A stretch of DNA of 59,711 bases from NCBI GenBank assembly GCA_013265495.1, contig MU057477.1, forward strand, positions 124,001-183,711. Reading direction: 5' to 3'. The notes below the pieces were generated by a model. The model was not told the DNA's origin and made no database searches. It saw only the letters and a list, made by a program, of their open reading frames with translations. Of this stretch, positions 9,401-59,711 are shown in pieces. The DNA comes from Vicugna vicugna. Taxonomy: Eukaryota. The position numbers and the translations under genes are program-made. Each line of letters starts with the position of its first letter. Position 1 is the first letter of the stretch.

Positions 9401-9518
9401 GTTCTTTTTGATTGCCCTTTCAAGGCCCGAGCTTTGAGTTTTGCTGCTTCATTTGGGTGCAGTTAAATTCTGGTTCTCAAATGAACTAGCACTAAAAGCA
9501 CGGCCATTGTCCTTGCAG

Positions 9519-9677
9519 AAACTTGGGGACTGTGGCAGCCATGGAGCCAGTGTAGCGCCACGTGCGGGGACGGTGTCAGAGAGCGTCGCCGCCTGTGCCT
9601 CACCTCCTTCCCCTCCCGACCCGGCTGCCCTGGAATGTCCTCGGAGACCTCCCCGTGTTCCCTGGAGGAGTGCGCTG
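9519..9677 (+). CDS. THSD1: THSD1 penultimate coding exon, thrombospondin type-1 repeat (159 nt, phase 1-1)
   Basis: ccttgcag| acceptor and |gtaggt donor; translates (E)TWGLWQPWSQCSATCGDGVRERRRLCLTSFPSRPGCPGMSSETSPCSLEECA with the WxxWxxWSxCSxTCG TSR motif; in frame with the exon at 14058. Confidence 0.96.
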
Positions 9678-9713
9678 GTAGGTATCCTTTCTCCTTCGGG
9701 AGTCTGTTCCTGG

Positions 9714-9830
9714 AGGGGACTTGCTCAGCAGTAGAGCACGTGCTTAGCATCATGGTTCAGTCCCCAGTACCTCCACTGAAAAAAAAAAGTTAAATAAACA
9801 TAATTACTCCCCCCCCAAAATAAATAAAAC
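9714..9830 (+). mobile_element. Vic-1-type SINE, internally deleted, about 36 nt downstream of the TSP1 exon donor
   Basis: ggggacttgctcagcagtagagcacgtgcttagcatcatggttcagtccccagtacctccac followed by an A-rich tail. Confidence 0.8.
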
Positions 9831-13930: not shown

Positions 13931-14057
13931 ACCAGAAATCCTAGTCTTTGTTTATGTTACTTTAACTGCTAGAGAGTTAGAGCAAACCACTCAGAGACCT
14001 TCTACCCACGCAGAGAAAACAATACCAGAGGATACACCGCTCTTCCTTATTTTGTAG

Positions 14058-15439
14058 CTTTCCGGCCATCCAGTCAGTCTCCCCTCCAGCCCCAGGGTCC
14101 AGTGAAGTCCAACAACATCGTGACGGTCACTGGGATATCCCTGTGCTTGTTCATCATCCTGGCCACCGTCCTCATCACGCTGTGGCGGAAGTTCGGCCGC
14201 GCCCCCAAGTGCAGCACCCCCGCGCGCCACAACTCCCTCCACGGCCCTGGCTGCCGGAAGAACTCGGACGAGGAGAACATCTGCGAGCTGAGCGAGGCGC
14301 GCGGGAGCTTCTCGGACGCGGGCGATGGGCCGGCGGGGGGCCCGGGGGACCTGGGCATCCCTCTGACCTACCGGCGGAGTGCGCCGGCGCCCCCCGACGA
14401 CGAGGCCTCGGGCAGCGAGAGCTTCCAGCCCAACGCGCAGAAGATAATCCCGCCCCTGTTTAGCTACCGCCTCGCCCAGCAGCAGCTGAAGGAGATGAAG
14501 AAGAAAGGCCTGACGGAAACCACCAAGGTGTACCACGTGTCCCAGAGCCCCCTGACCGACACCGCCATCGACGCCGCCGCCGCCGCGCCCCCCGGGGACT
14601 CGGAGAGCCCGGAAGAGGCGGCCGCCGGCAAGTTCCGGATCAAATCCCCGTTCCTGGAGCCGCCCGCGGCCGGGGCCGGGGAAAGGCCCACCTCCAGGCT
14701 GGCTGTCGCTGTGTCGCCGGCCAGCTGTGCCGTCAGCCCCAGCCAGACCGTGATCCGCAAGTCGCAGATGAGGCACGCGGGCGGCAGGGGGGCGCTGCCG
14801 GAGAGGAGCCACCCCAGGAGTTCCCATTTCCGCAGGACGGCGAGCTTTCACGAGGCCAAGCAGGCCCGGCCGTTCCGCGAGCGGAGCCTGTCCACGCTGA
14901 CCCCGCGGCAGGCCCCCGCCTGCGGTTCCAGGACGCACACCTGGGACCAGGCGGAAGACCGATTCCGGCCTCCGAGTCGAGGCGCTGCCCTGCTTCCGGA
15001 GAAGCTGGACCACGGCCAGGGGGCAAGTGGAACCGGTGGTGCGTTAAGCCCTCTCCCTAAATCCCACACCTTGGGGCAGCACACGAGGAAGCCAGACCTG
15101 GGGGATCGCCAGGCAGGATTCGTGGTAGGCGGGGAGAGAACGGAGCCTCACCGAGCTCGAAGGGGACCGTCCCCCAGTCACAGGAGCGTCTCAAGGAAGC
15201 AGCCGTCCCCCACCGCCCCCAAAGATAGCTACCAGAGGGTCAGTCCTCTGAGCCCTTCTCAGTGTAGAAAAGACAAGTGTCAGAGCTTCCCCGCCCACCC
15301 AGAGTTTGCCTTCTACGACAATACATCGTTCGGTCTCACTGAGGCCGAGCAGAGGATGCTGGACCTCCCGGGATATTTTGGGTCAAATGAAGAAGATGAA
15401 ACCACAAGTACGCTGAGTGTGGAGAAGCTGGTCATCTAG
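14058..15439 (+). CDS. THSD1: THSD1 terminal coding exon: transmembrane helix and long Ser/Pro/Arg-rich cytoplasmic tail
   Basis: ttattttgtag| acceptor, phase 1; reads (A)FRPSSQSPLQPQGPVKSNNIVTVTGISLCLFIILATVLITLWRKFGR...YFGSNEEDETTSTLSVEKLVI*, which I recognise as the THSD1 C-terminus. The ORF-track start at 14102 is an internal GTG, not a true start. Confidence 0.97.
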
Positions 15440-46644: not shown

Positions 46645-48199
46645 GTTTCCCAGCTGTATTTCTAGATACCTTTCAGGATTTTCCCACTTAGCAGTTTTTA
46701 TTCAGTGTTGGGCCTGGCCTTCACTGACAGGCATAGGAACTAGCTGATTAAGTCAGAAAAACCAGTCACCAAGTTTGAGTGACTCTTAGCTTCTTCAGCA
46801 AATGTATGAGGCTCTTCAGTTACGTTGGGAAAATCCATGACTATGGCTCAAAGTTCAGCTTTCCTTCAGAGAATATGAGAAATCAAGGGTTTAGTCTCTG
46901 GGTCCTCAGTAGGCTTAATTTTAAAGGGACAGGTTCTGAAAAGTGCAGAGGAAAAGGAAGTGGGGAGAGTTTCAGAAAAAAAGGTAAGTTAGGCAAGAGG
47001 GTTAGTTTGGGGAAGTGAGGGTATAGAGGAGGTGGAGACAGGAAGGGAGAAGATGGCACCAGAGGTGGGGCCTGAGCATAAGGCGCTGAGGGGGAGAGAC
47101 AAGATGGCGGCAGAAGCTGTTTTCTCTTTCTTTAATCATAATGACTGAGAGACTGGTTCCAGGCACCTGAGGGAGTCTCTAATTACTAGCTGACCATTAT
47201 GTTAAACAAGCTGATTTCAGTGGTCGTACTGTACAAAGAATACAGAGTTTCAGAAAAGTCACTTAACAAATAACAACAAATCCTGGGGAGAGGGGGAAAA
47301 TCCAGTTTCCACTTGTTATGGTATGTAAAAAGTCCAGTTTTCAATTAAAAAATCTAAAAAGGAACAAGAACTGTGACCCTTAGAAGGGCTTCCAGGCCTT
47401 TTTTCATCTTCTGTGAGACAGGGAAGCTGGAGGGAGCTATGGTTGTCACATTGCCCTTCTGCAAGGTCAGATAAGGCTCTGGTAAGGTAGCTCTCTGTAG
47501 AGCAAGTCTTTCTCAAGGAATAGGATCCTCTGGGCATATTTCAAAAATGGTCCAGCCTTGAAGTTGTCAACCTGACACTGAAGTCAGTGACCATGTTTTA
47601 TTTGTTTTTGTAACTTTCAAAGTGCTTTACAGACATAATAATAAATGACTTTAATCTCTTTTTCCATGTCTTCAACTGACCATTTATTCAGCATCAGAAT
47701 ATGTACCAACGCAGACTGTCAAATTTATCTTTATTTCTCTTTTGGTGGTAATTTTTATGTTGTAATTTCCATATAAAAATGTCTGTTTCCTACGTTCCTC
47801 CCCCCATATTTGTCTTCATTTGTTTGGTATTTGTTTACACCTTTCAGATTTACTCTGCCAAGAATATGGGTGTATTTTTAGCTTACAACTAATACTTGAT
47901 TGCTGCTTCTCAATCCTATGAAGTAATAGCTTGAGTTAAACTAAAATTTCTTTCCTCATTCCTGCATCAACCTTGCCTATTGTAAGTAAAGTTAACATCG
48001 GCCAGAAAACACTCAGCCCTCTGGTCATTCTCTCCAAACAACCAACAGGGGAAGCCAAAAAGCTCAGTGTAACCTTCAGAATCATAATATGGAAAAAGCA
48101 TCCCCTCCACTAGATGCGAAAGTGCGCTTTGAGATTATCATCCTGGGATCTTTCATCGTGGTACCCCCACCCCCATCTTTAAGGAGAGCAGCGTCAGTT

Positions 48200-49000
48200 C
48201 CTAAGTACCCGTTATCTGGAGCCACGCTCACTGTGTTCTCCACTCCGCTACGTCTCAGGACTCCGTGGAATCTGTTGTTTAGGGTTGCCATGGACACGGA
48301 GTTCTTTTTCTAGTAGTGGCTTTTTGCCGGCCCCAGGTAAAGACCTAGGACGGGCGCCTCCGTACAAGGGCAGCTGAAGGGTTGGGGCGGAGCAGGGATA
48401 GGGGTCTTTAAACGCGGTATACAGGACACTTTACCTTGTGGTAAGCTGTGGGGAGCACTGATTAACGTTCGTCTCCTCTCCCGGGGACTTCTCAGAGCCC
48501 CCTCACTCTCAGGGATGTGGGGGTGGAGTGGATGGGGACACTAGGTCGTTGTAGGACAAAGTAGCAGTAACCTTGCGTCTGGCCGGGAACTGGGTCAAGA
48601 TTTGACTTAACGGGCGTAGTTTGAGGATATTAAAAATGAAAAAAAGAATGGAAAGAGAGAAAGAAAAAGGCATTATCCTGTAAGGCAGCAGGAGAGAAAA
48701 CTGCTACCCAGGATCTTGAGTAAAGTTCGCTCCCGATTAGGACAAGTTGTACCCTAGCCACAAAACGCGCCCCACAGCCCCGCAGCCCCAGCCCCTTCCG
48801 AGACGCAGCGCCTCCGCTAAAGCAGCCTTGCCTGCGGGTAGGCGGATCCCGGGGCTGCAGGGAGCGGGGCCCAGAAACCGGGCTCTGCTTCGCCCGCCCT
48901 GGCTCTCGGGGCGCTGCCTCTCGTGAACCGAGGCCGCGGCCTCCCAGCTTTGGGCTTCCTACTCCCACTGCGCATGAGCTGGTATCCCTCAAAGGTATGG
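48200..49000 (+). promoter_or_regulatory. CpG-rich promoter region and probable non-coding first exon (candidate donor CAG|GTAAAG at 48336/48337) of the downstream gene
   Basis: Local CpG enrichment against a CpG-poor background; GC-box GGGGCGGAG (~48384); X-box-like GTTGCCATGGACAC at 48284-48297; lies about 1 kb upstream of the ATG exon. Confidence 0.6.
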
Positions 49001-49728
49001 AATTTAACAGGTGACTGGGTCCCAAGCCCAAAACTCAAAATCAACATTTATGCCCAAATTGGTCTGTTTATAAAATTTAAAAAAAATTCCTATTTGTTTT
49101 TATCTTTCTCTCCTTGCCCAGAATTTAGGGGCTTGTGGCACACTTCCGGCTGCCTTAGTGTGGTCATCATATGATTACTTGCCAGCTTGGCAATGTCTTT
49201 TATTCTCCAGTGATTTATCACAGTTTGTATGCATGAAATCTGCTCTGTGAAGTGTTGAGGGTCACATCTCTTTATTATTCTACAGAATCTTTCAGGATGT
49301 GATTTATTCTACAGAATATCTCGTGATGGAAATCTCATGTCACTATGATCATGTAAAGTTGGTTTGAAACGGGTTTTGTTTCATTTTTTGGATCCTGTGT
49401 AGCAAGTGGGCAATCTTTAAAGTGTCCTTACTTGAGCTAAACTTAAATTTTATTGAACACTCAAAAAAGATTTTCCTCTATTTCTTGAACTACAATATTA
49501 GAGACAAATAGCCAATGCATGTTTCACAGGACTGATAAGATTGCACAGAATGGCACATTTTATGCTTGTGGATTCAAGACTTTGGAAATGCTGATCCATG
49601 CCTAATAAGTCCTATGTATGACTTTCTTTCTAACTGGTGGAATATCATATGTGTTTTAAACATGTTAAATATGTGCTTTTCCTTTTCTTAGATTAATTGT
49701 AGATTAAATTCAACCACGAGACAATGCC

Positions 49729-49781
49729 ATGAAGAGATTGAAGGACAACCTATATGGTTGGTTCAGACCTCAAAAAAATAA
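49729..49781 (+). CDS. TPTE2: Putative TPTE/TPTE2 first coding exon (coding part): MKRLKDNLYGWFRPQKN(K)
   Basis: Acceptor ccttttcttag| at 49691 (alternative at 49702); gccATG Kozak context; AA|gtaagt donor in phase 2, in frame with the next exon; gene identity inferred from synteny and exon architecture. Confidence 0.6.
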
Positions 49782-50529
49782 GTAAGTGAGAAGATTCAAA
49801 GTTACTGAATTTTAAGCATAATTTTCAGCCTCTGTTAATAGAATCCAATGCACGTGTACCTTTAATAAATGTAAATAATATGCAAAAGAAATTGGCAAAC
49901 AATTTAAAGACCTTGTTTTATGCCTGTAACTTCCTTAAAAATACCACATCTTAGGCAGTGTGCTAGTGATAATATGCATGTACCAGTTAAGGTCACTTCA
50001 AACTTCTCCTCCAGGGGTGGCTGGTTGCCCACATGGAGGATGTTCTGTCTGGAGGTGGTAACCATTTCTGGACACGGCCACTACAAGGGCTTCAGTTGTC
50101 CCATTTCCTTCAACACCTGAAACATTGCTAATTACCACAGAGAAGGTCACAAATGCATTTTTATTAGCAAGATTACTGGTTTGCAAATCAGTATGATGGA
50201 TGTGAGAAATACACAGATGTTCAAGGTCTGTGAACTGGCAAAAGTAAATAACAGTAACTGTCTCAAGGGATGTAATGAGGACTAAATGAAGTAATATTTG
50301 GGACGCATCAGCACAATGCCTAGCACTTGGTAAATACCTTTTCAATGTTTGTTAGACGAAATATCACTTTTGTGGTATTATTTCTTTAATTTGGGCAAAT
50401 TTATCCTTATTTAAAAATTTTTTTCCATTTTATAATTTATTCTTAGATGTCGATAAACTAGGTGTTAGATGTATTTTTATCCTCCATATCAATTGGCTTT
50501 TCTTTTGTATATTGTCTGTCTTAATTCTT

Positions 50530-50679
50530 TTTTTTTAACTTTTTAAAAATTAAAAAAAATTTTTCTTGTGGGCAGAGGTAATTAAGCTTATTTATTTTTA
50601 AGTGGAGGTACTGGGACTTGAACCCAGGACCTTGTGCTTGCGGGGCAGGCACTCTACCCGTGAGCTATATCCTCCTCCC
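50530..50679 (-). mobile_element. Vic-1-type SINE
   Basis: ggaggtactgggacttgaacccaggacc...cactctacccgtgagctatatcctcctccc. Confidence 0.8.
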
Positions 50680-52471
50680 TGTATGGTTGTGTCTTTATTC
50701 TTTTCTACTATTTTTTCTGGGAGAGTTTCTCAAGTTCATCTTCCAACTCTAAACTAATTTGCCTTTCACATGTATCCAAACTACTCTTTATCCCATGAAT
50801 GGATTCTTTATTTCAACAATTCTACTTTTACATGTAAGATTTCCTGTTGGGTTTTTTTTCCTTAAGGCTTCTTCTTCTCATTTCATGTTCCTAACATCTT
50901 CCCTTGTATCTGTAAGTGTGCTTCTCATTCGTACCCAAAAACCTTGGTCAGTGTGTTCCGCTGGTTCTGCTTCAGATGGTACATGTTGCTCAGTTTGGTG
51001 TATTTCTTTTGCTTGTTGTACTCTGTTTTGACTTGTGAGCTCATATTCATTGTGGCCGTCGGCCCCTCTGTCTAGTAACCAGTATTAGGGAAGGGCTGAA
51101 GGTGGGACAATCTCTGTCTGTGGCTGTTGTCTCAACATAATTATTAACAGCATGTCCTTGTCACTTTCAAAAGTGTCCTGGCTTGGGCAAGGTATTATAT
51201 AGGCAACTAGTTGAAAGCTGGGACCTAGGGTGTGTTTTTCTCAATAAGTTTAACGTGAGGGGAGATGATAAGCTTGGGCATAGAGTTTCAGGGACCACGA
51301 AACACTATGACCAGGTAATTCGTGTGGTCAGGTATGCCACCTTTAAGCTCATGGGCAAAGCAGCCTTGGAGGAGGCAGTGACTCTAGGTTGTCACCTGGG
51401 GCTTTGGAGATGGGCTGGTTGTGTAAGAGTGAATGCCCAAGGACTGCTCTTCAGCCTTTCCCTGTTTTCATCAGCTAACCTAATGCCACTGGAGTATTAT
51501 TACCTACCTACACCTGGGTGGTTGCTACTGGTTTCTACTGAGAAGGCAGTGATTGTCTCCAACTCAAGGGAAAGACAAGAACAGAACTTAAAATTGTCCC
51601 GCCCCCTGGGCCCCTCCAGACTGACGCCAGCTGCCCTTTCCCACAGCCTGTCTGCCAGTTAAGGATGGACTCCTCTAGAATGTCCCAGGGTTTGTCTTGT
51701 TGTTTCTTGGAATTCATACTTCTGTTGGACTTCTACAGTTTTGGGAGGAAGACTGTCTCTCATCTCAGATAGGAACTCAAGATTTCCCAGGAAATTATGG
51801 AGTGTATTACTTTGAGAATCTTTGTGTTTAAAATTTAAAACATGTATGAGTTTTATATTGTTGTCATGTACTGGCTTTTGGCATAGCATTTGGTGAAGAA
51901 GACAGGCTGCCTAACCAGTAATATTGGTGAAATGGTAAATATTTAGCAGGCTTTTATGACGTGAACAGATGCAAAGTGCATTTTCATGTGTCTTATTTGA
52001 CAGGTGAGGAAATTGAGTTGTGAAGAGGTTAAATTATCCAAGCCAGTGATTTGGTGGTGAGAAGTCTTGATTTTGGATAAGATAACCAGATATGTTTTTG
52101 AAATTCAGAGAAAAAGAAAAAGGAACCATTCTAAACATGCTCTACCTCTAGTTCAGAAAAAGAAAGAAAGAAATATTATACTATATAGGTCACTGTTGAC
52201 CTAACTACCTATTTCTTCTCTACCAAATGATGGACAGGGACTAGTCGTTGGCATTGGAATATTCATTGTTCTGGCATTTTCTTTTTCTGTATCCCTTCCT
52301 TAGCTGTTACCTGGATCCACCTCCCTATCCCTGCGTTCTCACATCTTTCATGTTTCTCAGATTCCTTCCAGAGCGTGTGAATGTTGACAAAGTGGGGAAG
52401 AAGAAAGGAGGTTTAATAATGCCACACCTCCCTTTACTTCTTTCCTTCTCCTTCCAGTGGATTCACAGACA

Positions 52472-52474
<3 letters not shown>

Positions 52475-52530
<56 letters not shown>
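52475..52530. repeat. (CA)n microsatellite, about 28 units
   Basis: Directly visible; a shorter (TG)n lies at about 41464-41496. Confidence 0.95.
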
Positions 52531-52533
<3 letters not shown>

Positions 52534-52705
52534 AGAGGCTGTCTCAGAGGTCTCAGTGCTGTCCCCTGAAGCTGTTTCCTTAGTTTCTGCCATGTTTCTT
52601 CATGATTTTACTTTTCATATCCTGAAATTCTATCAGAAAAAAGAACGCAATTGCCTTCCAAACTGTCTGACTTGATTTTTTGTGTGTTTTTTCACCCTTT
52701 GGCAG

Positions 52706-52753
52706 AGTTATGGATGCCCCTTCGGGCTCCTCTGACAACACTGACAGTGTAAG
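52706..52753 (+). CDS. TPTE2: Putative TPTE/TPTE2 micro-exon, 48 nt, phase 2-2: VMDAPSGSSDNTDSV(R)
   Basis: ttttttcaccctttggcag| acceptor and AAG|gtgagt donor; no stop codon; internal in-frame ATG at 52710 is a possible alternative start. Confidence 0.68.
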
Positions 52754-53490
52754 GTGAGTTGACCTGACTGAGCTGAGTGGGGAAAGGTATTGGGAGCAAA
52801 CTCATAGTTTGTTTGTGATCCTCAGTAGCTAGCAGCCAGACCTCTCAGGAAGCTCTCAGAATGTCTCTGTGTGAGCCTCTGCCCGAGGGGCCGGCAGAGG
52901 AGGGAGGAGGTGGTAGCCGAGGAAAGGGCGCTGTGGAGCTCTCGACAGGAAAGAGTGGCCCTAACTGACGCCCGGCTCTGTCCCTCGCCCCTGGAGCTGG
53001 GCTACTGTCTAAGGCTGGTGTCCCAGCTGTACACCCTCCGCCGTGTTGCAGAGAGCCCCTGCCTCAGGCTTGTATTTATTTGAACCAAACTGAGGAACCG
53101 AAAAGGAATACATGATACAAGAAGAGTAAGGATGTGCTGAAGGGAATTGATGATCAGGACATTAGCAGAGGCTTCAAGATGGTATACCTATAGACTGAAG
53201 TTGAACTTTGAAGTAAATTCAGCCTCAGTGCAGTTACACACGAGAGTCAAGTTTAGCAGTAAATAATTGCATTTGTCTTGATTTTTACTGGGCTTTGCGG
53301 GCAGGCCTAAGATCTTCATTTCAACTGTAATAAATCCCTATTTCTAAGGAAAACTGAAATACTCATTGCCAAATAACTAACTTCCAAATAGATTTCTAGG
53401 GTTCAACTAGTTTACAAATTGAGGACTACTTACAACTAATTAACTCTATGGAGTCACTTGGAGTTTGATTGTATGTTTTTAATTCCTTAG

Positions 53491-53544
53491 AAGTGACCCA
53501 AATGAACTGCCATCAGGAATCCATCATGGAGTCACCCATGAAAG
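53491..53544 (+). CDS. TPTE2: Putative TPTE/TPTE2 micro-exon, 54 nt, phase 2-2: SDPNELPSGIHHGVTHE(S)
   Basis: tttttaattccttag| acceptor and GAAAG|gtgagg donor; same 18-codon, ...ES-ending design as I recall for human TPTE N-terminal exons. Confidence 0.72.
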
Positions 53545-54761
53545 GTGAGGAATATATTAAGGGGTGAGTGAATGGGATGGAGAAATTTAGTATCAGGATT
53601 ATCTGTGGCAGTACAGAATTTTCTGGACAATGATTTAAAATCCTTTCTAAAAAGATAGGGGTTTCAATGAATTATGTTTACTACATATTTTAGATTCAAG
53701 GGATTCTTATTGTTCAGATATATTGATTATATTGCTGTTCTGTATAGAATATCTCTAGTGATACATTTCTGCATTTTTGGGATATTCAAAGTAAAACAGA
53801 ACAATTTTCCAGGCTGGGTGATGGTAATGGAGACAATAATGTTCCTGGTTCATATGAATAAGTCAGTGTCAAGTTTGAAAGGCAGGAACTGTTGGTGGAT
53901 CTCTTTTCATTGGGAAGGTAGGGTTTATGCTGAGGCAAGGAGAAAAGGGAGAACTAGGGAAAGATATCAATGTTTGGGAGGGAAGGGGTTACAATAAATC
54001 ATCCTAATTTGATTTATAGAAAATACCATCTTTTTAAAAATTACATTTATCACAATTAAATATTCTAGTTTGAAAATCTTCTACTTTTCAGAAGAGTTTG
54101 AGAAGAGCGGTATTAGTTCTTGTTTAATGTTTAGTAGATTTTACCAGTGAAGCCATCTGGTCCTGGCCTTTTGTGTTTTGGAAAGTTTGATTACTAATTC
54201 AGTCTCCTTACTAGCAACTAGTCTGTTGAGATTCTCTGTTTCTTCATATTTCAGTCTTGGTAAGTTATGGGAGCCTGCTGCCCCAAACCCAACCGCCCCA
54301 TCATATGGAGGGAGCCTCTGACTCAGGCCTGTGCTTACTCTGCAGGATCCGAGGAGCAGGAAAGATGACCAAGATGAGGAGTCAGAGGGTGATGAAGGGA
54401 CTTGAGAAGCAGGAAGTTAGGTGAGGGGAGAGGGATGTATAGCTGCAAACTGAAGTCGAATTTGAAATAAATTCCACAAAAGGATGCTACATATTGGGTC
54501 AGATTCAGCAGTAAAGGACTATACTTAATTCTTGAATTGTTAGCTTTTACGGTAGGTCAAAAATATTTATTATAAACATATAAAAAATCATTTCTAGGGA
54601 AGAGGAGATATCAGATTCCAAATAACTGATTTACTTTACTGATGTGAGTTTTCTAAGAATCAACCAGTTGATAAGTTTAAGAATCATTGTAGCTGATTTG
54701 AAAAAAAGTAAAAGTCTAGAAGTCATGGGATATCTTATTCTGTCTATTTTTAATGCTTTAG

Positions 54762-54815
54762 CACTTCCCTGAGTAAACTGACATCAGTATCCTCTGAAGG
54801 ACTCTCCAGTGAACA
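54762..54815 (+). CDS. TPTE2: Putative TPTE/TPTE2 micro-exon A1, 54 nt: TSLSKLTSVSSEGLSSE(H)
   Basis: tttttaatgctttag| acceptor and CA|gtgaga donor; phase 2-2, open. Confidence 0.68.
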
Positions 54816-55463
54816 GTGAGATACAAAGCATAAATACATATATGTGCACACACACACAAATGCATACGGATACAGAGTGAGATTTGGGACGTTCACCCTA
54901 GGAGCACCCATGGGAATACAGAGTTCCTTTCATAGTATTTCTAAAGTCCTCTTGTGGTTAGATTCTATGTATAATATTCTTTGTCTTTGGAACTGAAGTA
55001 GAAAAAGAGGCACAAGACAAAGAGGGGATTTCTTACTCCTGTCTTAACTCTCAGTTACTATCAGCCAAACTCTTAGGAAACTGTCCGATTGCCTGTGTCT
55101 GAGACGCTAATAGAGTGTGTCCGGGGAGGAGAATAACCTATTCAGAGCAAGGAGAATGATGGTAACTTGTAAGTAGTAAATAAATAGTAGCAGTGGACAG
55201 GGAGCAGAGGAGGCCTCAACGGAAGAGCATGGAGCTAAGAGACCTGGATCTGTCCCTCACCCTGCAGATTCAGCCACCAAGTGAGGCTAGTGCCTCAAAT
55301 CCAAATGCACCATCATATGGAGGGAGCCCCTGACTCAGGCCTGCAGTTACTTGACCGTATCCCAGGGGCAGGAAAGACATCCTTTGTTTCTAAAGAGCAC
55401 AGTCATGATGGAGGAATTGAGAATCAGGAAATTAGATTGCTCAAGAAAGATGGGAACCAGGAA

Positions 55464-55562
55464 GGGGGTGAGTAGAGCTCAGTGGTAGAGCGTGTGCTTA
55501 GCATGCACGAGGTCCTGGGTTTAATCCTCAGTTCCTCTATCAAAAAAAAAAACAAAAAAAAA
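55464..55562 (+). mobile_element. Vic-1-type SINE within repeat unit 1
   Basis: gggggtgagtagagctcagtggtagagcgtgtgcttagcatgcacgaggtcctgggtttaatcc followed by poly-A. Confidence 0.9.
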
Positions 55563-55860
55563 CGGTACTTACAACTGAGGTTGATTTTGGAATAAATGCT
55601 ACCCCAAAAGGCTGTGACATATTGGGTCAGGTTCAATAGTAAAGAATTGTACCTAAGTCTTGGGTCATTACATGTTTGACAGTATAAGACATTCATTGCA
55701 AATTCGTAAAGCCTCATTTCTTGGGAAAATAACCTTCCAGGTTTCAAATAATTGATTTACACATCAGTTTTTAAAGGGTCGCCTAGTTTATAATTTGAAC
55801 CAAAGAATTCAATCTAGAAAATTATGTGGCGTCTGACTATGTTGCTTTTTAATCCTTTAG

Positions 55861-55914
55861 CACTGCCTTGCCTGAACGGACAACAGGAACAGCTGACAGA
55901 ACCAGAACTGAAAG
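55861..55914 (+). CDS. TPTE2: Putative TPTE/TPTE2 micro-exon B1, 54 nt: TALPERTTGTADRTRTE(S)
   Basis: tttttaatcctttag| acceptor and GAAAG|gtgaga donor; phase 2-2, open. Confidence 0.7.
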
Positions 55915-56204
55915 GTGAGACAGAAAGAGAGAGAGATGTAAACAAAAGCATGTACATAAATGCAGAGAGAGGCACATGAGAATGGGAATGAGAGAAACCG
56001 GGAGGGAGCCGAAGAGGGGAGGGAAAGATTAACTGAAATTGAGATCGGTAATTTGGGAGGTTCATTTTTCAAGAGTATCTGTCACGTAAGTGTCTTTGAC
56101 ATTGTTTCTAAATCTTTTTTACTTCACCATATGTAAGTATCTTTCTGTCTTTTTTGCATCTAGTTGGATAAAAGAGAAGCAGGTCATAAGAGAGATGCGT
56201 CTTA

Positions 56205-56622
56205 GTTTTTTATTTTTTATTTTTTTAAAAAGGTGACGTGAGAATTTATTAGAGAATGGATAGTACACTCAGGGGAGAGCGCGCAGGCTCAAGGGAGCGG
56301 CTGCCCTGAGTTTCTTTGACAAGTTAGCTCCATAGGGTGTAAAAATGAATGGGCGGAATATTCATTGGGCAGGGAAGGGTTTGGGGTCGCATTCCCTGAT
56401 TATCATCCCAACTCCACCTTTCCAAAGGGAGGAGGGATTTTTGTCCTTATTTAGTCTGGATCAGAAGTGTCATGGCGTCGGTGCATGATGGGTACTTCTA
56501 ATTTGCAAGGCTAATTTTATTGAAATGAGGGTATAATGAGCAAAAGATCATATTCGGACACTAGAAATTCCTGCTCTTTCTCACCTTTCTTTGTTCTTCT
56601 CCAGGCCACTAGTCATCCCAAA
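56205..56622 (-). mobile_element. Poly(A)-tailed, 5'-truncated retrocopy of a MER41-like LTR (unit 1)
   Basis: Minus strand shows LTR motifs, then AATAAA (56250-56245), 18 nt, and an A-rich tail; 14-bp TSD agagatgc(g/t)tctta at 56191-56204 and 56623-56636. Confidence 0.75.
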
Positions 56623-57034
56623 AGAGATGCTTCTTATACTCATCTGTTTATCACTCTTAAGTGGCCGCCCCAAATCCTAAGAGACTATCCAAATGCTGGA
56701 GTATGAGACTCTCCAAAAATGGGCCAAGAAAGGAGAGAAACCTCTTTTGGAGCCAGGAGAAGTCTGTACTCCTGAAAGTGTTCAGGAGTAAAGAAATGCC
56801 CAGAAACTTGATCCACTGTTTGTTTGTTTGTTTTTCTATAGGACTAAGATTTTCATTACAAATGTATAAAGCCTCCTTTACAGGGAGAAATTAAATGCCA
56901 GGTTTCAAATAACTGATTAGAATGTAATTTTTAGGGCAACTATATTATAAACTGCAGAGTAATTGTAGCTAATTTGCATTTTAAAATCTAGAAAGACATA
57001 TGGAATCTTATTATGTGCATTTTTAATCCTTTAG

Positions 57035-57085
57035 TTATGACCAAAGCCAGTTGGAAGAAGTAATTTGTGTTGAACCTCTTGAAGG
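57035..57085 (+). CDS. TPTE2: Putative TPTE/TPTE2 micro-exon C1, 51 nt: YDQSQLEEVICVEPLE(G)
   Basis: tttttaatcctttag| acceptor and GG|gtgaga donor; phase 2-2, open. Confidence 0.68.
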
Positions 57086-57258
57086 GTGAGATATAAATAT
57101 ATATAGATAGAGTGGGGGGTGGGGTGGGTATTGAGATTTGTGAAATTTACCTTGGTGGTATCTATGACATATCTTACTTTGCCTATTTTTAATCCTTTAG
57201 CAAAGAAATTTACCGGTATCTGTGACATATCTTACTTTGCCTATTTTTAATCCTTTAG

Positions 57259-57312
57259 CCCTTCCCTGAATAATGTGACATCAGTATCCTCTGAAGGACT
57301 CTCCAGTGAACA
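57259..57312 (+). CDS. TPTE2: Putative TPTE/TPTE2 micro-exon A2, 54 nt: PSLNNVTSVSSEGLSSE(H)
   Basis: tttttaatcctttag| acceptor and CA|gtgaga donor; diverged paralogue of exon A1. Confidence 0.65.
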
Positions 57313-57971
57313 GTGAGATACAAAGCATAAATACATATATGTGCACTATGTACACAAACACACACAAATGCGTACGGATACAGAGTGAGATTTGGGATGT
57401 TCACCCTAGGAGCACCCATGGGAATACAGAGTTCCTTTGATAGCATTTCTGAAGTCCTCTTGTGGTTAGATTCTATGTGTAATATTCTTTGTCTTTGGAA
57501 CTGAAGTAGAAAAAGAGGCACAAGACAAAGAGGGGATTTCTTACTCCTGTCTTAACTCTCAGTTACTATCAGCCAAACTCTTAGGAAACTGTCCGATTGC
57601 CTGTGTCTGAGACGCTAATAGAGTGTGTCCGGGGAGGAGAATAACCTATTCAGAGCAAGGAGAATGATGGTAACTTGTAAGTAGTAAATAAATAGTAGCA
57701 GTGGACAGGGAGCAGAGGAGGCCTCAACGGAAGAGCATGGAGCTAAGAGACCTGGATCTGTCCCTCACCCTGCAGATTCAGCCACCAAGTGAGGCTAGTG
57801 CCTCAAATCCAAATGCACCATCATATGGAGGGAGCCCCTGACTCAGGCCTGCAGTTACTTGACCGTATCCCAGGGGCAGGAAAGACATCCTTTGTTTCTA
57901 AAGAGCACAGTCATGATGGAGGAATTGAGAATCAGGAAATTAGATTGCTCAAGAAAGATGGGAACCAGGAA

Positions 57972-58072
57972 GGGGGTGAGTAGAGCTCAGTGGTAGAGCG
58001 TGTGCTTAGCATGCACGAGGTCCTGGGTTTAATCCTCAGTTCCTCTATCAAAAAAAAAAACAAAAAAAAAAA
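57972..58072 (+). mobile_element. Vic-1-type SINE within repeat unit 2
   Basis: Copy of 55464-55562 at offset 2508. Confidence 0.9.
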
Positions 58073-58368
58073 GTACTTACAACTGAGGTTGATTTTGGAA
58101 TAAATGCTACCCCAAAAGGCTGTGACATATTGGGTCAGGTTCAATAGTAAAGAATTGTACCTAAGTCTTGGGTCATTACATGTTTGACAGTATAAGACAT
58201 TCATTGCAAATTCGTAAAGCCTCATTTCTTGGGAAAATAACCTTCCAGGTTTCAAATAATTGATTTACACATCAGTTTTTAAAGGGTCGCCTAGTTTATA
58301 ATTTGAACCAAAGAATTCAATCTAGAAAATTATGTGGCGTCTGACTATGTTGCTTTTTAATCCTTTAG

Positions 58369-58422
58369 CACTGCCTTGCCTGAACGGACAACAGGAACAG
58401 CTGACAGAACCAGAACTGAAAG
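58369..58422 (+). CDS. TPTE2: Putative TPTE/TPTE2 micro-exon B2, 54 nt (identical to B1)
   Basis: Same splice sites and sequence as 55861-55914. Confidence 0.65.
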
Positions 58423-58712
58423 GTGAGACAGAAAGAGAGAGAGATGTAAACAAAAGCATGTACATAAATGCAGAGAGAGGCACATGAGAATGGGAATGAG
58501 AGAAACCGGGAGGGAGCCGAAGAGGGGAGGGAAAGATTAACTGAAATTGAGATCGGTAATTTGGGAGGTTCATTTTTCAAGAGTATCTGTCACGTAAGTG
58601 TCTTTGACATTGTTTCTAAATCTTTTTTACTTCACCATATGTAAGTATCTTTCTGTCTTTTTTGCATCTAGTTGGATAAAAGAGAAGCAGGTCATAAGAG
58701 AGATGCGTCTTA

Positions 58713-59130
58713 GTTTTTTATTTTTTATTTTTTTAAAAAGGTGACGTGAGAATTTATTAGAGAATGGATAGTACACTCAGGGGAGAGCGCGCAGGCTCAA
58801 GGGAGCGGCTGCCCTGAGTTTCTTTGACAAGTTAGCTCCATAGGGTGTAAAAATGAATGGGCGGAATATTCATTGGGCAGGGAAGGGTTTGGGGTCGCAT
58901 TCCCTGATTATCATCCCAACTCCACCTTTCCAAAGGGAGGAGGGATTTTTGTCCTTATTTAGTCTGGATCAGAAGTGTCATGGCGTCGGTGCATGATGGG
59001 TACTTCTAATTTGCAAGGCTAATTTTATTGAAATGAGGGTATAATGAGCAAAAGATCATATTCGGACACTAGAAATTCCTGCTCTTTCTCACCTTTCTTT
59101 GTTCTTCTCCAGGCCACTAGTCATCCCAAA
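58713..59130 (-). mobile_element. Poly(A)-tailed LTR retrocopy (unit 2)
   Basis: Copy of 56205-56622; TSD at 58699-58712 and 59131-59144. Confidence 0.75.
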
Positions 59131-59542
59131 AGAGATGCTTCTTATACTCATCTGTTTATCACTCTTAAGTGGCCGCCCCAAATCCTAAGAGACTATCCAA
59201 ATGCTGGAGTATGAGACTCTCCAAAAATGGGCCAAGAAAGGAGAGAAACCTCTTTTGGAGCCAGGAGAAGTCTGTACTCCTGAAAGTGTTCAGGAGTAAA
59301 GAAATGCCCAGAAACTTGATCCACTGTTTGTTTGTTTGTTTTTCTATAGGACTAAGATTTTCATTACAAATGTATAAAGCCTCCTTTACAGGGAGAAATT
59401 AAATGCCAGGTTTCAAATAACTGATTAGAATGTAATTTTTAGGGCAACTATATTATAAACTGCAGAGTAATTGTAGCTAATTTGCATTTTAAAATCTAGA
59501 AAGACATATGGAATCTTATTATGTGCATTTTTAATCCTTTAG

Positions 59543-59593
59543 TTATGACCAAAGCCAGTTGGAAGAAGTAATTTGTGTTGAACCTCTTGAAGG
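59543..59593 (+). CDS. TPTE2: Putative TPTE/TPTE2 micro-exon C2, 51 nt (identical to C1); the next A-type exon begins at 59709 at the window edge
   Basis: Same splice sites and sequence as 57035-57085; the window ends tttttaatcctttag|CCC. Confidence 0.65.
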
Positions 59594-59711
59594 GTGAGAT
59601 ATAAATATATATAGATAGAGTGGGGGGTGGGGTGGGTATTGAGATTTGTGAAATTTACCTTGGTGGTATCTATGACATATCTTACTTTGCCTATTTTTAA
59701 TCCTTTAGCCC

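Follow-up and report, generated by a model that had tools for sequence, protein, structure and literature searches.

The window, by which we mean the whole 59,711-nucleotide stretch of Vicugna vicugna DNA analysed here, holds towards its 3' end nine very short open segments, and the question raised by this locus is whether they are exons of a gene and, if so, of which one. The initial annotation took them for the N-terminus of a hidden gene of the TPTE/TPTE2 family. We put at roughly 0.93 the probability that the nine micro-exons are real and encode the flexible N-terminal tail of a TPTE2-type voltage-sensing phosphatase (VSP). "Hidden" overstated the case, since the gene is already modelled with these exons in the public annotation of alpaca and camels, and its novelty as a gene find is low. 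The locus serves as a positive control, in that splice signals alone recovered a gene invisible to the open reading frame (ORF) track.

The exon array and its splice signals

Between 49729 and 59593 on the + strand, we observed an exon structure of nine AG/GT-bounded segments of 53, 48, 54, 54, 54, 51, 54, 54, and 51 nt (e1 to e9), each with the position, length, phase, and stop-free frame first described for it. The internal segments e2–e9 are each preceded by AG and followed by GT, and all enter in phase 2; the 473 joined nucleotides make 157 codons plus 2 nt without a stop. The donor is GTAAGT at e1, GTGAGT at e2, and GTGAG at e3–e9. The array opens with e1 (49729..49781, +; an ATG with 17 codons and 2 nt), which matches exactly the first 17–18 residues of all six Vicugna models. 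The reading frame is closed by a TAA 24 nt (8 codons) before the ATG, and the exon probably starts at about 49693, just after the acceptor-like ttccttttcttag. A CpG-richer stretch 5' of the first coding exon (48000..49200; GC 0.52–0.58, CpG observed/expected 0.55–0.75 against 0.06–0.3 in the flanks) may contain a promoter or a non-coding first exon.

The modules that follow are all on the + strand and of phase 2/2. Upstream of its GTGAGT donor, e2 (52706..52753, 48 nt) has a second in-frame donor, GTAAG, 6 nt away that would give a 42-nt form; the 48-nt form is the one found in the protein models, although none of the camelid models seen reproduces its peptide exactly, each differing at one residue. 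Exact matches to the six Vicugna models were found in all six for e3 (53491..53544, 54 nt), in five for e5 (55861..55914, 54 nt), in four for e6 (57035..57085, 51 nt), and in all six for e7 (57259..57312, 54 nt), with e5, e6, and e7 each occurring four times in the model P0054. The intervening e4 (54762..54815, 54 nt), an older paralogue of e7, has intact AG/GT borders and an open frame and is used by none of the six Vicugna models, while an e4-homologous module is present in four of eight Camelus tails (P0062, P0006, P0061, and P0059). The last two segments, e8 (58369..58422, 54 nt) and e9 (59543..59593, 51 nt), are copies identical to e5 and e6. A tenth exon, of the e7 type, is cut by the window end after its first 3 nt (59709..59711, +), and 1,940 N follow.

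Most of these exons had been described as sharing an acceptor and a gtgag donor. The acceptor motif TTTTAATNCNTTAG matches nine times within the window, in each case on the + strand and between 53477 and 59708, whereas none of 100 dinucleotide-preserving shuffles contained any match. Seven of these matches precede e3–e9, the match at 57187-57200 is a duplicated decoy, and the last (59695-59708) precedes the tenth exon; GTGAG follows every exon from e2 to e9. A looser scan of the whole window, which combined a pyrimidine-rich acceptor, AG, 45–57 nt in steps of 3 with an open phase-2 frame, and GTRAG, returned ten candidates on the + strand, eight of them e2–e9, and two on the − strand.

Identity and integrity of the gene

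The identity first suggested, TPTE or TPTE2, is borne out by the observed homology to protein models. The joined peptide aligned to the N-termini of proteins carrying the NCBI name 'phosphatidylinositol 3,4,5-trisphosphate 3-phosphatase TPTE2-like', with 71% identity over 154 columns to P0002 and P0003 of Vicugna pacos (E ~1e-67, searched against 52 proteins in a local database) and 62% identity to P0006 of Camelus. The gaps in the P0002/P0003 alignment are whole skipped modules.

VSD and PTEN-like HCxGGxxR exons, which the initial annotation had proposed to look for downstream, were all found there on the + strand. The HSPs of P0002 and P0003 are ordered on this strand of one contig from 49729 to 94723 (numbering continued past the window), with S1, S1-S2, S3, S4, phosphatase, and C2 exons in order and a stop about 35 kb past the window end. 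The exons at 65761-70881, in the same numbering, aligned to the VSD part of P0002. Pfam Ion_trans reached only 17.1 bits on P0054, under its cut-off of 25, and the VSD was instead assigned from matches to VSP structures: the S1-S2 exon of the locus itself matched the Ci-VSP VSD structures 4g80 (E 6e-4) and 4g7v (E 9e-4), and its own S4 exon matched the TPTE2 structure 9c49 (E 3e-3). The P-loop is intact and split by an intron between two exons, HCKGGKG in one and RTG in the next; the locus's own P-loop exon matched 3v0i (E 8e-5), with Ci-VSP, TPTE2, and PTEN structures among the matches. Further along the same contig and strand, Pfam PTEN_C2 scored 38.7 bits (cut-off 27.1) at C243:218574-218714 (+), and the C2 exons are colinear with P0002. 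PTEN_C2 has seven other matches on six other contigs of the assembly, and this locus is the only one recognised as TPTE-like. When the 3' C2 exon was used as a query it retrieved TPTE2-like proteins, with Vicugna ranking first; of 54 candidates, 52 proteins reached E ≤ 0.001. The N-terminal exons lie on the same strand as the VSD and phosphatase exons, in the right order and with compatible phases, and the two sets are joined in the models of related species; this colinearity with the catalytic exons is likewise observed.

In the gene model that we favor, the stretch is the 5' coding part of the single TPTE2-type voltage-sensing phosphoinositide phosphatase gene, in which the ATG exon is followed by exons of 48–54 nt, each phase 2/2 and each supplying a tail module of 16–18 residues. 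The predicted product of these exons is an acidic, Ser/Thr/Glu-rich, cytoplasmic, and probably unstructured tail ahead of transmembrane helix S1. After the array come one more module, an acidic 135-nt exon, S1–S4, the PTEN-like phosphatase, and C2.

Open segments between AG and GT can also arise by chance where there is no gene, and the small size of each exon, though nothing else, speaks for such an origin here. Homology and colinearity rule it out; the peptide homology, the ordered HSPs, the exon scan, the exact matches of individual exons, and the shuffle test leave it practically no probability. It is very unlikely, though less so than a chance origin, that the locus is a decaying, non-functional copy of a TPTE-family gene. 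Human TPTE lacks catalytic activity and is accompanied by pseudogene copies, and the module exon that follows the assembly gap here has GG as its acceptor where the other modules have AG, which would fit decay. To judge from its sequence, at least this one module may be dead in this assembly. All P0002 coding exons are nevertheless present and in order, with no stop within the exon-matching parts, and the P-loop reads HCKGGKG/RTG, as it does in active relatives, which argues for an intact gene.

The surroundings contain little else that could be named. Seven long ORFs in the introns and nearby matched no Pfam family. Upstream, and on the same strand, there is a gene with a TSP_1 domain, putatively THSD1-like, whose end is 34 kb away; its TSP_1 exon, the one feature that points to such a gene, lies at 9485-9790 (+, 46.8 bits). 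A 488-codon open frame at 13973-15439 (+) has a hydrophobic stretch by eye, and searches of this frame returned no Pfam family, no named THSD1 match, and a top Atlas score of 0.82 to unrelated families. In mouse, Tpte presumably follows Thsd1 on the same strand.

Growth of the array and use of its modules

The observed duplication anatomy centers on a tandem unit of 2,508 bp. Unit 1 (54972..57479, +; 100% self match) comprises e5, e6, and e7 with their introns, and unit 2 (57480..59711, +) is cut at the window end. Over about 2,230 bp the two units show 2 differences (99.9% identity), at adjacent positions within a SINE poly-A, and a 58-bp indel. A 58-bp direct duplication of the e7 acceptor region (57143..57258, +), whose first copy provides the decoy acceptor at 57200, is absent from the matching junction before the tenth exon (59695-59708). 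Around e4 and e7, 250 bp of sequence differ by 14 substitutions and an 11-nt indel, and the e3–e6 units and the post-gap unit resemble one another in introns as well as exons. Other contigs of the assembly have no further copies of the 2,508-bp unit, and TRF, with a longest period of 500, found only a (CA)33 repeat.

We propose that the array grew by tandem duplication at three levels, of which single-exon units of about 1.1–1.2 kb are the oldest, the e4/e7 pair the middle one, and the 2.5-kb unit, with its three exons and 53 residues, a very recent one. As e7–e9 represent a near-identical second copy of the unit, they are not independent observations. The three-exon cassette is present once in the Camelus models, four times in alpaca P0054, and at least twice here before the gap; because copy number differs in this way and the array runs into 1,940 N, the count of nine exons is an assembly-dependent lower bound.

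All module exons are symmetric (phase 2/2), so that skipping or duplication of any one of them leaves the reading frame intact. The in-frame skipping first suggested is therefore possible by construction, and it is seen among camelid RefSeq models, which differ by whole modules: by eye, there are four tail patterns among the six Vicugna models, one of them with four cassettes, and six among the eight Camelus tails. Which modules are spliced in, and in which tissue, we infer; the patterns themselves come from computed XP_ models. Two RNA-Seq runs labelled 'reproductive system metagenome', X16 and X17, contained 0.49 and 0.46 of sampled words from the 3' end of the gene, values that are no evidence of expression or splicing.

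Two readings would shrink the array or its repertoire. The assembly may be at fault, e7–e9 being a false duplication or a product of mis-scaffolding, in which case the window has six distinct micro-exons. That the bulk of the two units differs only at the two adjacent poly-A positions would fit this, as would the direct abutment of unit 2 on the 1,940 N, the fragmentation of the assembly into 12,405 contigs, and the lack of further unit copies on its other contigs. Units 1 and 2 meet, however, in uninterrupted sequence, and their junction has its own 58-bp duplication, missing from the next junction; the surroundings of e4 and e7 have diverged as described above; and P0054, which carries the cassette four times, derives from a 73.9 Mb alpaca record. 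We therefore regard an artefact as improbable. More plausible than an artefact, though still doubtful, is that the exons are real but mostly constitutive, or fixed in a few isoforms, and that gene-model prediction has produced the "combinatorial" repertoire. The computed nature of the isoform models points in this direction, and no short relatives of the P0054 tail, of the sort that cDNA contigs might yield, were present among 8,000 candidates scored. Against it stand independent annotations of two genera, both with differences of whole modules at shared exon borders, and several splice variants reported for human TPTE and TPIP (PMC3229583).

Returning to a real gene with a growing array, we advance only tentatively the view that the cassette is a young coding tandem array, still homogenising or expanding, whose copy number differs between camelid lineages and probably individuals, and which is one case of a recurrent, lineage-specific amplification of 54-nt symmetric exons in the N-tail of the sperm VSP. 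The N-tail of a sperm phosphoinositide phosphatase is here a frame-neutral exon array that probably expands by unequal crossing-over. Each cassette copy adds 53 residues, with a net charge of −7 by a hand count from the exon peptides. If the view holds, the length of the tail could adjust how the enzyme is trafficked or retained in sperm, and reproductive selection could act on it. We found no account of this exon-array expansion in searches of the openly accessible TPTE/TPTE2 literature, that is, outside subscription-only papers.

In a charge-hydropathy calculation the composition of the tail lies on the disordered side, consistent with the disorder predicted for it; the top 19-residue Kyte-Doolittle window of the tail reaches 0.56 vs 2.24 in the VSD, and residues 1-288 of P0054 are covered by no solved structure. 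A tail of this kind would act on the trafficking or retention of the phosphatase and not on its catalysis. In mouse VSP, exchange of the N-terminus (M1-S211) and the S2-S3 loop for those of Ci-VSP led to more surface expression, and the authors consider voltage sensing unlikely to be altered by the swap (PMC11344830).

Comparison with known systems

The closest counterparts are the six 'TPTE2-like' RefSeq models of Vicugna pacos: P0054 (XP_072832266.1, 777 aa), P0057, P0002, P0055, P0056, and P0003. They share e1, e3, e5, e6, and e7 letter for letter with the locus, as well as the module order, the acidic exon, everything from S1 onward, and the C-terminus. Besides e2 and e4, the differences lie in the cassette, of which P0054 has four copies where the assembly shows two units and the start of a third before the gap, and in the post-gap module exon, the one with the GG acceptor here, which the older models use and P0054 skips. 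Camelus TPTE2 isoforms X1–X8 (P0062, P0006, P0058, P0060, P0061, P0063, and others) have the same module types and order (e1–e7, the post-gap module, and the acidic exon) but a single cassette, and the peptides encoded by their e4 and e7 homologues are identical. Vicugna P0057 and Camelus P0062 share 146 of 166 aligned tail residues and 412 of 459 over the remainder of the protein.

In human, the N-terminal exons of TPTE and TPTE2 are 18 codons long and alternatively spliced. Human TPTE and TPTE2 (TPIP) are described as PTEN-related transmembrane phosphatases that are expressed in testis and occur in several splice variants (PMC3229583), and their architecture is given as VSD, phosphatase, and C2 (PMC10769328). 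The TPTE2 structure 9c49 matches residues 289-774 of P0054 (E 5e-175), and structures of Ci-VSP match the S1-S2, P-loop, and cytosolic regions. Mouse VSP likewise has a long N-terminus, of 211 residues, and the mouse and Ciona VSP N-termini are poorly conserved (18.9% identity; PMC11344830). N-tail homologues detectable by sequence were confined to camelids and one whale, with five proteins out of 309 candidates reaching E ≤ 0.001. Among other laurasiatherian TPTE2-like models, the tails of pangolin (P0032) and cats (P0024 and P0011) are also built from repeated modules of about 18 residues, with other modules amplified in each lineage. Aligned with itself, the Manis tail matches best at an offset of 18 (identical at 93 of 197 positions) and the cat tails at one of 36, whereas the three-module period of 53 residues occurs, among the tails compared, in the Vicugna model only (167 of 265 positions).

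Micro-exon structure and chromosomal setting

Script extraction recovered nine plus-strand micro-exons (e1–e9) at 49729–49781 (e1, 53 nt), 52706–52753 (e2, 48 nt), 53491–53544 (e3, 54 nt), 54762–54815 (e4, 54 nt), 55861–55914 (e5, 54 nt), 57035–57085 (e6, 51 nt), 57259–57312 (e7, 54 nt), 58369–58422 (e8, 54 nt), and 59543–59593 (e9, 51 nt), confirming the AG/GT-bounded, phase 2, stop-free segments of the initial annotation. All internal exons have AG/GT borders, every exon after e1 starts in phase 2, and the joined 473 nt encode 157 residues with zero stops. An alternative in-frame donor (GTAAG) 6 nt upstream would shorten e2 to 42 nt; protein models agree with the 48-nt form. The acceptor motif TTTTAATNCNTTAG occurs nine times in the window, always on the plus strand and within 53477–59708, and had no match in 100 of 100 shuffles of the window sequence. 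A looser splice and open-frame filter returned 10 plus-strand candidates, eight of them within 52706–59593, and two on the whole minus strand. Because each exon from e2 through the 135-nt acidic exon to S1 is phase 2 at both ends, any of them can be skipped or repeated in frame. The region around the e1 start codon (49680–49731) has an acceptor-like ttccttttcttag 37 nt ahead of the ATG, an in-frame TAA 24 nt ahead of it, and, 5 nt ahead, an out-of-frame ATG whose reading ATG CCA TGA overlaps the start codon.

The window, C243:124001–183711 on the plus strand in this 2.03-Gb assembly of 12,405 contigs, is mammalian, camelid-like DNA with tRNA-derived SINEs (50602–50675 on the minus strand, called tRNA-Ala-like by ARAGORN; 55470–55560; 57980–58070), a (CA)n microsatellite, and scaffold-type N runs. 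The microsatellite, (CA)33.5 at 52464–52530, lies 175 nt upstream of e2. In mouse, Tpte follows Thsd1 on the same strand. Upstream of the micro-exons and on the same strand, a TSP_1 exon (9485–9790, 46.8 bits) and a 488-codon terminal open frame (13973–15439) with a hydrophobic stretch seen by eye were assigned to one gene, putatively THSD1-like, which would fit this expected neighbor; Pfam and Atlas searches of the 488-codon frame yielded no named protein match.

Downstream exons and gene identity

A whole-assembly search with Pfam PTEN_C2 gave a single match on the plus strand of this contig (C243:218574–218714; 38.7 bits against a cut-off of 27.1), approximately 35 kb past the window end. 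Of 54 candidates for the surrounding open frame, 52 proteins reached E≤0.001; those that are named are all TPTE2, TPTE2-like, or the same phosphatase, with Vicugna pacos models scoring highest, followed by Camelus. In local blastp against these 52 proteins, the joined e1–e9 peptide aligned from residue 1 with the V. pacos models P0003 and P0002 (154 columns at 71% identity; E = 4e-67 and 7e-67, respectively), with gaps corresponding to whole modules, and with the Camelus model P0006 (62% identity, E = 6e-54), supporting the proposed TPTE/TPTE2 identity.

We then searched the 96,669 nt of window plus downstream sequence with P0002 and P0003 by tblastn, recovering two exons only at lower stringency. 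The parts of both proteins fall in order on the plus strand, micro-exons first. In coordinates continued past the window, these are followed by a module exon (62556–62606), the acidic exon (63669–63803, or L009:3958–4092 in the adjoining contig sequence; HSP 63667–63801), S1 (65761–65829), S1–S2 (67586–67765), S3 (approximately 69058–69177, read within the lower-stringency HSP 68947–69180 and identical to P0002), S4 (70768–70881), a phosphatase exon starting at 71819 (lower stringency), the P-loop exons (HCKGGKG ending at 79267, RTG starting at 82147), the C2 exons, and a last exon ending at 94723. The series includes the S1–S4 and PTEN-like phosphatase exons that the initial annotation proposed to look for downstream.

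Translations of the locus's own exons matched solved structures: S1–S2 the Ci-VSP voltage-sensor domain (4g80, E = 6e-4; 4g7v, E = 9e-4), S4 the TPTE2 structure 9c49 (E = 3e-3), and the P-loop exon Ci-VSP, TPTE2, and PTEN (best E = 8e-5). Residues 289–774 of the V. pacos model P0054 (XP_072832266.1) match 9c49 (E = 5e-175), and a structure search with whole P0054 found no solved structure covering residues 1–288. These sequence comparisons support the interpretation that the micro-exons form the N-terminus of a TPTE2-like gene, which is already annotated in close relatives.

Layered duplication of the tail exons

The alignments indicate that the tail exons are duplicated in three layers. Approximately 170 nt upstream of e3, e4, e5, e6, and the module exon that follows the assembly gap can be aligned together with the exons themselves (64% mean column identity), and these units have short intronic families in common at a spacing of 1.1–1.2 kb, indicating old single-exon tandem duplications. 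In the second layer, 14 substitutions and an 11-nt indel separate the 250-bp surroundings of e4 from those of e7. In the third, the 2,508-bp unit at 54972–57479, carrying e5, e6, and e7, is repeated at 57480–59709, with two adjacent changes over approximately 2,230 bp, both in the poly-A tail of the second SINE. A third e7-type exon, the tenth, starts at 59709, 3 nt before the window end, which is directly followed, inside the tandem array, by 1,940 N (L009:1–1940). The first 55 nt past the N run are 87% like the flank downstream of e4/e7.

At the first unit junction only, 58 bp of the e7 acceptor region are directly duplicated (57143–57258), which gives rise to an additional TTTTAATCCTTTAG acceptor, a decoy, at 57200. 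The matching junction ahead of the tenth exon has no such duplication. A genome-wide search found no 2,508-bp unit on other contigs, the remaining matches belonging to an approximately 400-bp interspersed repeat within the unit. This repeat lies within the e5–e6 intron (56224–56624; copy at 58732–59132) and had 2,444 genome-wide candidates at first look, the 40 scored being 90–93% identical. The three-exon cassette is young and possibly copy-variable, and is the sole mildly new element of the locus.

The post-gap exon (62545–62609; L009:2834–2898) is open in frame and has the acceptor GG instead of AG. Its module is present in the older Vicugna models and the Camelus tails displayed, and is skipped by the newest Vicugna model, P0054. 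Given the GG acceptor and this skipping, the exon may be dead in this lineage. The acidic exon contains three tandem repeats of approximately 36–42 nt, where Vicugna models differ by 11 residues.

Tail properties and variation among related models

The joined tail is rich in Ser (15%), Glu (11.5%), and Thr (11%), with a net charge of −13, and a hydropathy scan of it found no membrane-like window. A charge-hydropathy calculation puts it among disordered sequences relative to the Uversky boundary, in line with the predicted Ser/Thr/Glu-rich, probably disordered tail, whereas the voltage-sensor and phosphatase-C2 parts of P0054 fall on the folded side. Mouse VSP has a 211-residue N-terminus with little conservation relative to Ciona; its exchange along with the S2–S3 loop raised surface expression in oocytes, and the authors consider altered voltage sensing unlikely (PMC11344830). 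From these tail properties and the mouse exchange, we propose that the tail would affect trafficking, retention, or the binding of partners and not catalysis, and that module number would set tail length and charge. According to published reviews and papers, TPTE and TPIP are expressed in testis with several splice variants (PMC3229583) and have a VSD-phosphatase-C2 architecture (PMC10769328).

A cluster look-up by exact match collected six Vicugna and many Camelus models, all computed, whose tail patterns we read by eye. P0054, which has 777 aa and derives from a 73.9-Mb record, runs through e1-e2-e3, four successive e5-e6-e7 cassettes, and the acidic exon, and exact-match counting confirmed four copies each of the e5, e6, and e7 modules. 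P0057, P0002, and P0003 have a single cassette and the post-gap module; e6 is missing from P0055, and both e5 and e6 are missing from P0056. None of the six uses e4. The fullest Camelus tail has e4-e5-e6-e7 plus the post-gap module, and five shorter combinations also occur. These whole-module differences among computed models agree with the predicted in-frame skipping. Relative to all the camelid models examined, e2 here shows a one-residue difference. Of 309 candidates, only 5 proteins, from camelids and a single whale, were detectable by sequence as relatives of the tail at E≤0.001. Other laurasiatherian models amplify modules of their own, the best self-offset being 18 residues for pangolin and 36 for cats, compared with 53 for P0054.
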